Sequence record: PZ386957.1
Origin: a phage
Length of the DNA stretch: 64,000 nucleotides
Strand: one strand, 5' to 3'
Every line of letters starts with the position of its first letter. The first letter of the stretch is position 1. Made by a program: the position numbers and the translations under genes. This document shows positions 43,903 through 57,115 of the stretch, one piece after another. The notes below the pieces were generated by a model. It saw nothing but the letters and a program-made list of their open reading frames with translations. It was not told the origin of the DNA and searched no databases.

Positions 43903-44379
43903 TTATTTTTCTTGATGCTCGCGCTCATACTTTTCGAAATAAAATTCTACTGGCTGGTCGTGGATTGACAGTAAGCCAAAGCGTTTAGCCGCGCGTAATC
44001 CCATGTTACGTTGAATGTACTTCTGGAAGTTCTCGCGTATACACTTACGCCAGTATTCTAAGCCCATACAGCTTTTATAAAGATTGCATTGCACACACGA
44101 CGGATTCATGTTATCAAGTATATCATGTTCCGGTTTATGCATTCCTACAACCTTATACTTCCACGATCCATCATCATTACGGGAAATTCGTCCATTTTCA
44201 TCATAGACTACTTTTGAGCGTCGCAATACTGGTTTGATGTGGTCTGCGTGCCAGCGATCCCCTAGTTCCTCGCCACAATAGGCACAACGTCCACCGTATT
44301 TCATTTTCAGGATCTGGCGTTGCTCTTTCTTTGACAATTTTTTAGGTTTAGGGGCTTTCGCCCCTTCATTATCACACAT
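43903..44379 (-). CDS. HNH endonuclease
   Basis: 158 aa; CAYCGEELGDRWHADHIKP (CxxC...HxDH) and later Cys pair; start overlaps DNA ligase stop. Confidence 0.75.
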   Translation of the reverse strand: MCDNEGAKAPKPKKLSKKEQRQILKMKYGGRCAYCGEELGDRWHADHIKPVLRRSKVVYDENGRISRNDDGSWKYKVVGMHKPEHDILDNMNPSCVQCNLYKSCMGLEYWRKCIRENFQKYIQRNMGLRAAKRFGLLSIHDQPVEFYFEKYEREHQEK

Positions 44380-45868
44380 CGAATACCTCTTTTACTGTAT
44401 TTGCAGTTGTCTTATCGTAGCGAATACGTTTGATGATTGGGAGAAATAACGAGAACTCCGGTTCATCTTCTTTACGTGACTTGCTGCGAATATACCCGTT
44501 ACATGTCATCTCAATGACTTTTCCAATCAGGTTATGACGATCAGACCATAGCATTTCTCGGTCTAGTTCATTTCGACGGTCAAACGGAATCACACGTTCA
44601 ATACCATCATCACCTTTTTCGGTTGTAGTGTCGGTTAATCCCGATCCGGTATTAGTCATCATTCGTCCACACGCACTACGGACAGTAAAACCGCCTACCT
44701 TATTAGGATCTTTACTATGCGGATATACATCAACAATTTCCGCATCGAAGTCAATCACTTCTTTAAATTTGACCTGATCTTTACTGCGACGATCTTCAAA
44801 TACGCCATGTAAATTTTTAAGGATAATGCCTTCTAAGCCCATGTTTACATAGCGATGATATACTTCGCGAGCTTCATCGATATTGTTAACTACAGTATTT
44901 TCGATTATCTGAACACGAGGATCGTTGAGTTCGTCAACAATCTGTTTTAGTTCTTCGAATCGATCTTTATATTGCTTCGTTGCTTTCTCATTTCCGTAGT
45001 ACACATCACGGTCGATAACATCCCAGACAGTGTAAACAATACACTGGGCTTCTTCTTTTGGAATAGTTCCTTTCAGTGATTTGTTGAGGATACCATTTCC
45101 GGTCTGACGATCTGCAACAACGGATTCTTTAACCGCTTCCGCTACTGGCGTTAATGGCATTTCCTCTTCTTCAAATATCCATGACAGAGTACCATCATAA
45201 ACGCTCTCAACGAAGTTCTGTGCTGGTGTTTGCGAAAGGGTAGGCATATATACCAATTCGCCATCTAGAACAATTCCACGGCCTCGTAGACGCTCTAAAA
45301 CAGCAAACAAATCATCAAGCCCCTGATAGGTATTGCCTGAACGGGTATAGATTGCTAATGTTTCCCCGTCAATGTCAGCCATCCCACGAGCGCCATCACT
45401 TTTAAGTTGTGCATACGCCGGATATTTGATATTAGCAATAGTCTTATCAGAATATGACGATGCAAGGTGACATGGTTGCTGAGGAATCAGTTTCTTCCAT
45501 ACCTTGTTTGCGGTAGTAGCGGAACAACCGCACTCCAGATCACGATTCAGGACCATCATTGCAACTTTAGCATCATCTTCTGACAAGCAAGTCAGAGTAT
45601 CGGTAACTAGCTGTAATGCAGCATTGCCAGTTACTTGACGCGTGGCAAGTTTATTTTTAAAGACCTGTAATGCACCGGATAAAGACAATACAGATGAATA
45701 ACGAGAAGGTTTATCGTATTTCTTTACGCCAAACGTAACCTGTTTGCAATATGCCAGATAAAAGCATTCTTTCAGCGTTTCATTGCTTGCAGATTCTTTC
45801 AGAATCTTTTCTTTCAGCGATGTTTTGTCCGTTGCCGAAAGCTGATTAATGATATTAAGAATTGACAT
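44372..45868 (-). CDS. 30: ATP-dependent DNA ligase
   Basis: 498 aa from ATG at 45868; KSDGARG adenylation motif and collinearity with T4 gp30 (TGNAA, DLECG, ANKVW, LDGELVY, NGIxNKSLKGTIxKEEAQ, GLEGIILKN). Confidence 0.93.
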   Translation of the reverse strand: MSILNIINQLSATDKTSLKEKILKESASNETLKECFYLAYCKQVTFGVKKYDKPSRYSSVLSLSGALQVFKNKLATRQVTGNAALQLVTDTLTCLSEDDAKVAMMVLNRDLECGCSATTANKVWKKLIPQQPCHLASSYSDKTIANIKYPAYAQLKSDGARGMADIDGETLAIYTRSGNTYQGLDDLFAVLERLRGRGIVLDGELVYMPTLSQTPAQNFVESVYDGTLSWIFEEEEMPLTPVAEAVKESVVADRQTGNGILNKSLKGTIPKEEAQCIVYTVWDVIDRDVYYGNEKATKQYKDRFEELKQIVDELNDPRVQIIENTVVNNIDEAREVYHRYVNMGLEGIILKNLHGVFEDRRSKDQVKFKEVIDFDAEIVDVYPHSKDPNKVGGFTVRSACGRMMTNTGSGLTDTTTEKGDDGIERVIPFDRRNELDREMLWSDRHNLIGKVIEMTCNGYIRSKSRKEDEPEFSLFLPIIKRIRYDKTTANTVKEVFDV

Positions 45869-55140: not shown

Positions 55141-56178
55141 TTACAGTTTGCAAGATGAACATTCGCTAGCGTCTTCCGTACCATCAGCACCATCACGAAC
55201 GTTAGCGTAATACAGTGTCTTGAGGCCGTAATATTGAGCAAACAGCATATCATCTAACACATCAACAATATCGACTTTACCAGTCTTATAAGTGCTTGGA
55301 TCGTAGGATGTATTGGAACTAATCGCCTGGTCTACAAACTTCTGCATGATCGCTGCCAGTGTCAGATAAGGCTTGTTACCTTTCTTGATCAGTGTCCAAA
55401 GCAGGTCAATAACATCAGCATTATTCTCTACGTTCGGAATAACCTGATTAAATTGTCCTTCCTTTGATCCTTTAACCGATACAATCCCGCGAGGCGGTTC
55501 AATACCATTTGTGCTGTTAGATACCTGAGAAGACGACTCACAAGGCATCAGCGCCGAAAGCGTACTGTTACGAATGCCATATTTTTTCAGGTCTTCGCGC
55601 AGTTCTTCCCAATCCATCTCATACACCGGATCAACCAGTTCATCTACTGTCTTTTTGTACCAGTCGATAGGCAGTTCACCGCGTCCATAACGTGTTTCGT
55701 GCATCAGTTCGCAAGCACCCTTCTCTTTAGCCAGTTGCACACTAGCCTTAATCAGAGCATATTGCAAGCGTTCAAACGTTTTATGCGTAAACTCGTTAGC
55801 GTCTTCATATGTGAAGAAATTATCCGCCAAATATGATGCAAAGTTAGTCACACCAACACCCAGAGAGCGACGTTTTTTGGCTGTCAGAGCTTGTTCTACA
55901 GGATAATCCTGATAATCTAACAGGTTGTCAAGTGCACGCACCATAACCATAGCAATGCGTTCTACTTCTTCCATGTTTTCGATATCGAAATTACCTAAAA
56001 CATAGGCAGCTAAGGTGCATAGTCCCACCTCGGCGTCTTCTTTCCCCATCGGAGAAGTGGGGAGTGTAATTTCCATGCAGTTATGTACTAAAATATCATT
56101 AGCGAAGAAAGAATGTGTATCTTCTACGGTAATGTCGTAAACCGGAATTTCAATCTCAATATATTCAATCTCAACCAT
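55141..56178 (-). CDS. nrdA: nrdA C-terminal fragment: split-intein C-half fused to NrdA C-terminal part (from catalytic Cys)
   Basis: 345 aa; first 33 aa MVEIEYIEIEIPVYDITVEDTHSFFANDILVHN are intein blocks F/G, followed by CMEITLPTSP...LCTLAA (compare E. coli NrdA SNLCLEIALPT...ALCTL). Confidence 0.85.
   Translation of the reverse strand: MVEIEYIEIEIPVYDITVEDTHSFFANDILVHNCMEITLPTSPMGKEDAEVGLCTLAAYVLGNFDIENMEEVERIAMVMVRALDNLLDYQDYPVEQALTAKKRRSLGVGVTNFASYLADNFFTYEDANEFTHKTFERLQYALIKASVQLAKEKGACELMHETRYGRGELPIDWYKKTVDELVDPVYEMDWEELREDLKKYGIRNSTLSALMPCESSSQVSNSTNGIEPPRGIVSVKGSKEGQFNQVIPNVENNADVIDLLWTLIKKGNKPYLTLAAIMQKFVDQAISSNTSYDPSTYKTGKVDIVDVLDDMLFAQYYGLKTLYYANVRDGADGTEDASECSSCKL
56080..56178 (-). 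mobile_element. Split intein C-terminal half (IntC, 33 aa)
   Basis: Ends FFANDILVHN followed by Cys, as in known phage-type split inteins. Confidence 0.8.
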
Positions 56179-57115
56179 TATTATATCTCCGTTCGTGAAT
56201 TTTTGTCATCGCTTCTTTTGCTTGTGTCCGTTGTTCGGGTGTACGATAGTATCGCTTGTACTCGAAAGAATTTCCAGTTTCTTTATTGTATGTGTCTACA
56301 AATTTTTCCATACTACCAAAATTATTTTTAATCCATACTATAGAGATTTTCTTAAATTCTGTAAATTCTTCTTTTAATGCCTTCACAAATCTATTAGCGA
56401 CGACGTGATTTTCTGAAATGCATTTAGGTACTAATGCATATAAACGCTGTTTGCGTTCCGGTGTAAGTTCTTTAAAGTTTGTATTTTTAGACCCTACACG
56501 CGACCCTTTCGTATAACTATCAAGACCTCGTTCTCTGCGTTCCTTCGTTGTAATATACACTCTATTACCGTTCTCGTCAATACACAAAATTTTTCCCTTA
56601 GAGTGATGTACCCATTTTCCACTAATCACGTTTGGATGGTCTTTAGTGTGAGATCCTACAGCTTCGCCCGTTTCAGCGTCTACGCAAGGAAAAGTTCCTT
56701 TACGTGCATTAGAGATTCTCATTCGACCATCTTCCGATTGCCAACCTACAGTCTTACGAAATTTAGCAATCATATGTTTATGTACGCCAATCTTTTTATT
56801 AAATGGTAAATGGTCAATAGTTGATTTCTTTTCAAATCCATTCACCATGACACGAACAGCAAGAAAATCATTTCTTTGTCGAAACGCTTTATATCTGATT
56901 AAATGTGCTAGATAATGTTCTTCTGGCAGCAATGAAACAAGATTGCTCTCGTCATTGGTCCCACCATCATGTTTAGGGATTATATGATGTTTTTCTGTAT
57001 AGATATACTCACCATCCAACCTAACATCATTTTCATTTCTAGACATTAAACGCTCTTTTGGCGTTGTCTCTTTGCACAATTTAATCAGATTGTCATAAAT
57101 AGCTTTGTAATTCAT
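56171..57115 (-). CDS. Free-standing HNH homing-endonuclease-like gene between the two nrdA fragments
   Basis: 314 aa from ATG at 57115 (AAGGAG RBS); EKHHIIPKHDGGTNDESNLVSLLPEEHYLAH HNH motif. Confidence 0.8.
   Translation of the reverse strand: MNYKAIYDNLIKLCKETTPKERLMSRNENDVRLDGEYIYTEKHHIIPKHDGGTNDESNLVSLLPEEHYLAHLIRYKAFRQRNDFLAVRVMVNGFEKKSTIDHLPFNKKIGVHKHMIAKFRKTVGWQSEDGRMRISNARKGTFPCVDAETGEAVGSHTKDHPNVISGKWVHHSKGKILCIDENGNRVYITTKERRERGLDSYTKGSRVGSKNTNFKELTPERKQRLYALVPKCISENHVVANRFVKALKEEFTEFKKISIVWIKNNFGSMEKFVDTYNKETGNSFEYKRYYRTPEQRTQAKEAMTKIHERRYNNG

Follow-up and report, generated by a model that had tools for sequence, protein, structure and literature searches.

Do the four genes with endonuclease domains that lie within about 13 kb of a T4-type phage genome, each at the edge of a conserved enzyme gene, all belong to one kind of mobile element? 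The question arises at positions 43903-57115 of a 64,000-nt stretch of phage DNA (record PZ386957.1; the whole stretch is hereafter the window), where a first-pass annotation had reported a high density of homing-endonuclease-type open reading frames (ORFs) around nucleotide-metabolism genes. The four ORFs are indeed present, all on the - strand, and the domains ascribed to them were found with Pfam at scores above or near the curated cut-offs, against which Pfam bits are reported throughout; an NCBIfam search of the same four nuclease ORFs returned no family above cut-off. The high density is real, but two of the four ORFs are genus-wide resident genes, and we estimate at about 80% the probability that the 13-kb stretch holds two resident nucleases and two independent selfish elements, namely a fractured nrdA gene, the main subject here, and a free-standing HNH_3+AP2 gene. 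The window belongs to a Krischvirus, that is, an RB49-like T4-type coliphage, with about 92-93% nucleotide identity to known members. A megablast search with positions 43000-60500 matched 64 phage records, nearly all of them Krischviruses (RB49, JSE, Phi1, GEC-3S and others); counts of presence and absence were taken over 59 Krischvirus records.

A split intein within nrdA

In the window, nrdA is found as two fragments on the - strand, at 57181-58788 (N) and 55141-56178 (C), with an HNH ORF (56171-57115) between them. The earlier description of an HNH gene inside nrdA was right as to position; it made no mention of the intein halves that both nrdA fragments carry (Pfam Intein_splicing matches each fragment), and the ORF reads as the endonuclease of a split-intein fractured gene. 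The N-extein (57484-58788, 435 aa) comprises the ATP-cone, the all-alpha domain and the first half of the barrel, is collinear with residues 1-435 of RB49 NrdA by Pfam domains and alignment, and ends in IKQSNL. It is followed by the intein-N half (57181-57483; 100 aa and a TAA stop, with the Cys1 codon at 57483-57481), which shows block A as CLSGETMV and block B as ICTPDH, ends in VVK, and scores 42.8 bits against a cut-off of 24.5 with the NCBIfam model intein_Nterm. The intein-C half (56080-56178; 33 aa, MVEIEYIEIEIPVYDITVEDTHSFFANDILVHN) has blocks F and G and the terminal His-Asn, scores 40.9 bits against 15.6 with intein_Cterm, and belongs to an ORF with a GGAG 9 nt ahead of its ATG. It leads into the C-extein (55141-56079; 312 aa and a stop, NrdA residues 436-747, covering positions 212-522 of the Pfam Ribonuc_red_lgC profile), which starts CMEITLPT. 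The +1 Cys codon (56079-56077) specifies the first Cys in the conserved motif SNLC; we take this residue to be the thiyl-radical cysteine, C439 of the E. coli enzyme. The whole cassette, 1404 nt long (56080-57483), sits directly before this codon. Spliced in silico, the two exteins give 435 + 312 = 747 aa, the length of RB49 NrdA and collinear with it without a gap, and the predicted junction peptide is IKQSNLCMEITLPTSPMGK.

The motifs are those of a class 1 intein: C1 in CLSGETMV, TPDH, VYDITVEDTHSFFANDILVHN and then the +1 Cys. When fused, the two halves reach 56.2 bits against 35.8 with Pfam Intein_splicing, and the closest solved structures are NrdJ-1 (8ubs, E 5e-15) and gp41-1. Both of these are active inteins, among the fastest-splicing split inteins and in use as tools of protein engineering. 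Both are also part of the fractured-gene set of Dassa et al. 2009 (PMC2677866). The halves differ in net charge (+6 for intein-N, -8 for intein-C). Nine loci were inspected by hand, namely the window, Yersinia phage vB_YenM_TG1 (NC_028820; hereafter TG1), a relative of T4, a Krischvirus-like metagenome contig (L006) and six contigs of other phage types, one of them of 363 kb; Cys1, the TxxH of block B, the terminal His-Asn and the +1 Cys are conserved across all of them. A contiguous intein read through the three ORFs of the nrdA region was considered as well and rejected on account of the TAA stop, the 65-nt leader that follows it and the frame of the HNH ORF, which differs from that of intein-N.

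Fractured genes were described by Dassa, London, Stoddard, Schueler-Furman and Pietrokovski (2009; PMC2677866), who listed the loci NrdA-1 to NrdA-7. As in those loci, the gene is broken into two collinear ORFs on the same strand by a split intein, one half on each, the halves are separated by a free-standing endonuclease ORF that has a start of its own and overlaps the downstream fragment, and the context is that of a phage; the insertion is directly N-terminal to the thiyl-radical cysteine, a point that is also the commonest intein site in ribonucleotide reductase (RNR) (PMC2677866). A further common trait is an RNA hairpin ahead of the endonuclease start, in many cases with TATAAATA. There are also differences. 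The endonucleases of 2009 were GIY-YIG or Vsr-like, an HNH type having been predicted only as possible (PMC2677866), whereas the one described here is HNH, and we therefore count the cassette as a variant of the fractured gene. The published loci were marine or lake metagenome fragments closest to cyanophages, whereas the present one is in a genus of T4-type phages of E. coli. Finally, the N-half is positive and the C-half negative here, the reverse of what was reported for NrdA-2 (PMC2677866). In the literature searched we found no description of an HNH-type split-intein nrdA.

To judge from its sequence, nrdA is divided in two, and the split intein most likely joins the two parts again as proteins. 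The two NrdA fragments would be translated separately, the oppositely charged intein halves would associate, and trans-splicing, with Cys1, the block-B Thr and His, the terminal Asn and the +1 Cys as catalytic residues, would yield a normal NrdA of 747 aa reading SNL-C-MEI across the junction.

One competitor to splicing comes from Aeromonas phage Aeh1. There, too, the nrdA of a T4-type phage is split by an HNH gene of the Mob family (nrdA-a/mobE/nrdA-b), near active-site residues, and unspliced, tailed fragments form an active RNR (PMC3045599). On this model the nrdA of the window would encode a non-covalent two-piece enzyme, and the intein-like tails would be interaction domains. The Aeh1 tails, however, are short, lack intein motifs and database matches, and are not removed, serving as essential interaction domains; moreover, the active-site residues Cys431 and Glu433 are both on NrdA-a (PMC3045599), whereas in the window the split falls directly before the cysteine. 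In the window the tails are complete intein halves, recognised by curated models and under purifying selection (see below), and all of the splicing residues are intact and conserved across the nine loci. The resemblance to NrdJ-1 and gp41-1, which splice fast, also speaks for splicing. In addition, an unspliced domain of 133 residues would probably be incompatible with catalysis, because the insertion sits directly before the active-site cysteine. We regard a two-piece enzyme as unlikely. The Aeh1 tails have themselves been speculated to be remnants of a split intein (Crona 2011; PMC3045599), and, by analogy, the nrdA cassette would be the kind of intact form that this idea requires, Aeh1 being known here by its published description (nrdA did not lie in the stretch of Aeh1 at 178-218 kb).

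The HNH gene, with its proposed regulation and mobility

The HNH ORF encodes 314 aa from its ATG (Pfam HNH, 27.2 bits against 21.4), matches PHROG 655, labelled 'homing endonuclease' (E 6e-24), and is Mob-like. In an alignment of 38 full-length homologs (alignment A1), residues H43, H44, N58, H67 and H71 are invariant and a central module is conserved as well; the family profile matches the HNH domain of McrA (E 1e-5). The stop codon of the ORF overlaps the ATG of the nrdA C-fragment (ATGGTTGA). Between the intein-N stop and the ATG of the HNH ORF lies a 65-nt leader (57116-57180, - strand), the 5' untranslated region (UTR) of the HNH gene, which folds into a hairpin of 12 bp (arms 57168-57157 and 57129-57118) in which the AAGGAG Shine-Dalgarno sequence (57126-57121) of the ORF is base-paired. 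The predicted fold has a free energy of -24 kcal/mol (z -5.8), and 0 of 200 shuffled sequences were equally stable. The loop opens with CATAAATA (57156-57149, - strand), which differs at one base from TATAAATA, the late-promoter consensus of T4. L006 has, at the homologous position, TATAAATA itself, from which a T-to-C change gives the octamer of the window; TG1 and the contigs L010, L011 and L017 have TATAAATA in or beside their own UTR hairpins. For Aeh1 mobE, regulation by a late promoter and by sequestration of the ribosome-binding site (RBS) has been reported, as far as the work is cited (Friedrich 2007, via PMC2677866), and the leader in the window is laid out in the way described for the regulation of Aeh1 mobE and of the fractured genes of 2009 (PMC2677866). 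A scan of 53.8-59 kb for sigma-70 promoters and terminators gave no excess over shuffled sequence (19 against 16.6 and 4 against 3.3, respectively); an 11/12 promoter-like match, which ends 2 nt before the ATG of nrdA-C, cannot serve the nrdA-C ORF.

With this anatomy, the hairpin over the Shine-Dalgarno sequence would silence the endonuclease on early read-through transcripts; its synthesis would depend on late transcription, starting from the TATAAATA-like motif within the hairpin. In a mixed infection the endonuclease would cut intein-less nrdA near the insertion site, and repair from a cassette-bearing genome would copy the whole cassette together with up to about 75 nt of the downstream extein.

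The cassette is polymorphic. At the DNA level it has no counterpart in 50,697 phage records, and the 59 Krischvirus records match only 41 nt of extein flank, so that the cassette is present in 0/59. An intact nrdA was seen in all six relatives whose nrdA region was inspected, and a single coding sequence of 2244 nt is annotated in RB49, JSE, Makalu_002 and G2494. Among phage records, TG1 alone has a full-length homolog of the HNH protein (49% identity), and no exact copy of the cassette proteins was found in a collection of 15 billion proteins. The same cassette, identical in length and with an HNH protein 91% identical (28 amino acid differences), is present in L006. Between the window and L006 the ratio of nonsynonymous to synonymous divergence (dN/dS) comes to 0.15 in the HNH gene, 0.13 in intein-N and 0.05-0.07 in the exteins, and intein-C shows zero nonsynonymous changes; judged from these values, the intein halves are under purifying selection.

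These figures also bear on the idea that nrdA, being split, is either a pseudogene or an artefact of assembly, with the phage relying on the RNR of its host, an idea for which there is a precedent in the intein-interrupted nrdA genes of Campylobacter phages, suggested to be degenerating (PMC3653736). Here, the two extein ORFs are uninterrupted, share 94% identity with RB49 nrdA and have the low dN/dS given above; neither frameshifts or stops nor relaxed selection were seen in the exteins, and the architecture is found again in other, independently assembled contigs and in the genome of an isolate, TG1. A pseudogene or artefact is in our view scarcely credible.

Next to the insertion site, at the start of the C-extein, is a diverged patch of 75 nt (56005-56079, - strand), in which 28/75 positions mismatch RB49 and seven amino acids are changed. 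The 60-nt bin over the patch is 62% identical to RB49; all other nrdA bins are at 83-100%, and those within 300 nt on either side of the patch at 90-100%. L006 has a patch at the same place that is different, milder and mostly synonymous. We read the patch as a probable co-conversion tract, a diverged endonuclease target, or both.

The same unit of HNH gene and split intein is found well beyond Krischvirus. The layout and the insertion site are the same in TG1, where intein-N is 52% and the HNH protein 49% identical and intein-C is present; TG1 differs in that it belongs to the genus Tegunavirus, its exteins are very different in sequence, and a second, unrelated endonuclease gene lies between its nrdA and nrdB. 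The TG1 annotation reads 'ribonucleotide reductase large subunit / homing endonuclease / NrdA-like' and names no intein. More than 25 metagenomic loci are homologous to the cassette. In 9/9 of the hand-inspected loci the HNH gene lies between an RNR alpha fragment ending SNL|C-intein-N and one beginning intein-C-HN|C; the HNH stop overlaps the start of the C-fragment in eight of the nine, most have the hairpin that pairs the RBS, and five have an exact TATAAATA. When IMG/VR was scanned, all loci with a long HNH match (19/19) had an intein half directly adjacent, and their exteins, wherever read or matched, were RNR alpha, including short forms distantly similar to NrdA. The HNH family is thus strictly associated with RNR split inteins; IMG/VR matches to the N-terminal HNH domain alone occur downstream of an intact nrdA, at a distance of a few hundred nt, in a mobE-like position. 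We lean somewhat towards the view that the HNH family and the split intein at the RNR thiyl site make up a single mobile unit, obligate and long-lived, which would constitute an HNH class of fractured genes and would have co-diversified across unrelated phage lineages and RNR alpha subtypes.

Two contigs depart from the common layout. In the IMG/VR contig L089 (914-1471), matches to intein-N and intein-C of nrdA are 141 nt apart, with an endonuclease-free gap, and the site, the same one in nrdA, may hold either a contiguous mini-intein or a split intein that lacks an endonuclease. In L017 (about 3900-5000) the intein appears to lie one residue further downstream (SNLC|C...HN|CEI), the position given by Dassa et al. 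as the NrdJ integration point (PMC2677866).

Several points weigh against a cassette that splices and homes as set out above. Trans-splicing is deduced from the intact catalytic residues and purifying selection, and cleavage by the endonuclease and its late-only expression from anatomy, conservation and analogy. Across the whole window, TATAAATA occurs 8 times where 6.5 are expected, which is no enrichment (seven of the eight copies are on the + strand, that of the structural genes). An AlphaFold2 model of the HNH protein (pLDDT, the predicted local distance difference test, 81; pTM, the predicted template-modelling score, 0.38) had a best E of 0.47 in a Foldseek search of the PDB, with weak matches to HNH domains alone; with no significant full-length structural neighbour, the DNA-binding specificity of the protein has no support from structure. 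As for the patch, the best of the nine homologous loci matches at 48/75 positions and a scan of IMG/VR for exact 29-mers of the patch gave zero matches; with no donor found, the patch could reflect local selection instead of co-conversion. Finally, the loop octamer being CATAAATA instead of TATAAATA may mean that late expression of the endonuclease is weakened or that this copy is decaying.

The last of these points leads to a further alternative, in which the cassette is a decaying relic whose endonuclease is no longer expressed or active and whose inheritance is only vertical; the T-to-C change relative to L006 and the 28 differences between the two endonucleases would fit. However, the ORF is intact with a dN/dS of 0.15, the HNH residues invariant in the family are all present and the hairpin is intact. 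A variant octamer is, moreover, no peculiarity of this locus, as an annotated late promoter of RB49 also has one (TCTAAATA). We hold a relic to be doubtful.

Fractured genes have been proposed as an intermediate in the entry of endonucleases into inteins and in the origin of naturally split inteins. The examples of 2009 were host-less metagenome fragments; the cassette described here belongs to an E. coli phage genus in which 59 or more sequenced relatives, about 93% identical, lack the intein. Homing, co-conversion, the timing of the endonuclease and the in vivo trans-splicing of an essential enzyme are thus open to testing by ordinary crosses. If our reading is right, this would be the first genetically tractable fractured gene in which to watch homing and trans-splicing in vivo, and it would allow a test of whether the spliceless split nrdA of Aeh1 descends from such a cassette. 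The cassette also supplies a compact natural split intein of 100 + 33 aa, with Cys1 and Cys+1, related to NrdJ-1 and gp41-1.

A second mobile gene and two resident nucleases

The other three nuclease ORFs were compared with their counterparts in the relatives. The one upstream of nrdB (54011-54550, - strand; 179 aa) has an HNH_3 domain (38.2 bits against 24.8) and an AP2 domain (31.0 bits, E 3e-7, slightly below the cut-off of 33.3), and matches PHROG 99 (E 1.5e-48). Its stop abuts the nrdB start, and the gene makes up an insertion of 552 nt (54009-54560) in what is otherwise a 15-nt spacer upstream of nrdB. It is present in 3/59 Krischvirus records (G2494, G37-3 and G5211; 96.9% identity), and in the other 56 the match is confined to the flanks (134 nt in total), which makes it a clean indel. 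The adjoining 5' end of nrdB (53700-54008, - strand) is read as a co-conversion tract. Over these first 309 nt or so the window has 49 mismatches (15.9%) to RB49, which lacks the endonuclease, followed by 14 in the next 400 nt, whereas it has 14 (4.5%) over the same 309 nt to the endonuclease-positive G2494. The low divergence from G2494 and the high divergence from RB49 show that the gene moves together with part of nrdB, the mark that co-conversion leaves in homing; some 300 nt at the 5' end of nrdB would spread along with it.

By sequence and position, the HNH_3+AP2 gene is an ordinary free-standing homing endonuclease gene in the position of T4 mobE. T4 mobE is a free-standing HNH endonuclease gene between nrdA and nrdB (PMC3653736); the gene of the window is in the same interval, is likewise polymorphic among relatives and is tied to a diverged nrdB tract, and differs in being HNH_3+AP2 whereas mobE is of the Mob/NUMOD subfamily. 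The HNH_3+AP2 family is found in 2549 phage records, and Krischviruses have paralogs, 42-47% identical, at other sites, e.g. beside dam and gene 59. Details of the T4 mobE target are reportedly to be found in work by Wilson and Edgell from 2009. JSE has a NUMOD3-type endonuclease gene (215 aa; L003 12010-12657), unrelated to the HNH_3+AP2 gene, at the identical spot, and in TG1 the further unrelated endonuclease between nrdA and nrdB is of 519 aa (L004 2441-4000). The nrdA-nrdB interval appears to be a recurrent landing site for endonucleases. L006 has the nrdA cassette and lacks the HNH_3+AP2 gene, and the two elements therefore assort independently.

The two remaining ORFs are of another kind. 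The HNH gene downstream of ligase (gp30), at 43903-44379 on the - strand, encodes 158 aa (Pfam HNH, 26 bits against 21.4), with an 8-nt overlap between its ATG and the ligase stop. It is found at full length beside ligase in 59/59 Krischvirus records, with 95.9-97.9% nucleotide identity. Measured against RB49, JSE and Makalu_002, its synonymous divergence (dS) is 0.13-0.21, that of ligase 0.20-0.22 and that of gp30.3 0.14-0.22, and its dN/dS is about 0.05; neither presence/absence polymorphism nor a divergence decoupled from that of its neighbours was seen at this site in the 59 records. Its other homologs are HNH proteins of 30-43% identity in small siphoviruses, several of them encoded near genome ends. 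Weak matches to PHROGs labelled 'endonuclease VII' raised the possibility of that enzyme, which we found to be unsupported: the motif HADHIKP is that of a standard HNH, and the best family is a generic HNH PHROG.

The GIY-YIG ORF (50787-51248, - strand; 153 aa; Pfam GIY-YIG, 23.4 bits against 22.6) overlaps the longest rnlA ORF, and a gene in the same place, likewise overlapping rnlA, is annotated denA (endonuclease II) in RB49 and JSE. It is present in 59/59 Krischviruses, and weak DNA-level matches were found in 233 other records of T4-type phages. Its product is 54% identical to TG1 DenA (E 1e-52), the denA-rnlA synteny of T4 is kept, and its dS (0.18-0.22) is like that of its neighbours. 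The endonuclease II of T4 is a GIY-YIG protein of about 136-153 aa whose gene is directly upstream of rnlA and overlaps it, as here; we see no difference of weight between the two, and by sequence they are orthologs. The ORF is, on this evidence, denA, a resident core gene of T4-type phages and not a homing endonuclease gene.

The comparison of these junctions among related phages, which the first-pass annotation had named as a check, thus separates the four ORFs: two are polymorphic (the HNH_3+AP2 gene in 3/59 records, the nrdA HNH gene in 0/59) and two are fixed. For the first two, the proposal of homing endonucleases at the borders of enzyme genes holds, with the qualification that the nrdA gene is part of a split intein. 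The ligase-adjacent HNH gene and denA are not homing endonuclease genes, because they are present in 59/59 relatives at identical positions. A common origin of all four ORFs as free-standing homing endonucleases at the borders of conserved enzyme genes would account for the HNH or GIY-YIG domain in each and for the conserved gene that each abuts or overlaps. It is nevertheless very unlikely, given two genes that are fixed in the genus, have a dS like that of their neighbours and a dN/dS of 0.04-0.10 (both genes taken together), an annotation, synteny and similarity to TG1 DenA that identify one of these two as denA, and a fourth ORF that is embedded in a split intein. From their sequences, the ligase-adjacent HNH gene and denA are best described as vertically inherited resident genes; the annotation should be corrected and both left out of counts of homing endonucleases.

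Other features of the window

The gene order in 43000-60500 is the same as in the Krischvirus relatives, with ligase gp30, gp30.3, gp31, cd, pseT, the spanins, rnlA, denA, nrdB, nrdA, td, frd and gene 32 on the - strand. Outside this region, the ORF for the large terminase subunit (1-2940, + strand) has two in-frame insertions, 496-1158 and 1436-1878, that are absent from RB49 gp17 and look, from their sequence, like contiguous inteins without an endonuclease domain. The first, of 221 aa, is in the Walker A loop (SRQLGK|...THN|T) and resembles DnaB inteins of M. smegmatis with solved structures (E 2e-19), which are class 3 inteins. The second, of about 148 aa, directly follows IYIDE (CVSGSTKV...ESHN|C) and is similar to 'CatC', an engineered consensus intein (6dsl, E 1.4e-12). 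The terminase inteins are polymorphic among Krischvirus records, some of which label the terminase 'DnaB helicase'; in both TG1 and Krischvirus records, then, intein-containing genes are annotated without naming the inteins. Counting that of nrdA, there are three inteins in this coliphage window; a 2024 paper states that inteins had not previously been reported in coliphages.

Between the frd-side ORFs and gene 32 is an ORF of 478 aa (61394-62830, - strand) with CapR/DUF4379 treble-clef zinc repeats and a match to PHROG 681, 'endonuclease'. Its equivalent in RB49 is a 485-aa 'endonuclease', RB49p240, and JSE, Makalu_002 and G2494 are empty there. The two proteins are 42% identical overall, with the last 70 or so residues almost identical, a pattern that suggests a mosaic; the 478-aa ORF would be a third nuclease-like gene that is polymorphic. 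The thymidylate synthase gene (58854-60086, - strand; 410 aa) has a Pfam match split by an insertion of about 140 aa; the RB49 gene is equally long (1233 nt), and the extra stretch is thus probably shared by the genus rather than a mobile element of this phage.

After the major capsid gene there is a 4.4-kb segment (11158-15546, + strand) that is absent from RB49. It encodes ORFs of 571, 308 and 468 aa, the last two rich in coiled coils and alanine zippers, and no nuclease domain was found in any of the three. Beside hoc, in a segment without an RB49 match, lies a repeat-rich ORF of 855 aa (20470-23037, - strand), which looks like a second Hoc-like paralog because its C-terminal end closely resembles that of the adjacent 410-aa ORF (19192-20424). 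Finally, 40439-43629 (- strand) holds a run of small paralogous ORFs of about 92-106 aa that share the motif HW...(V/I)(L/I)A(V/I)DV; the region is conserved in RB49, with a variable number of ORFs.

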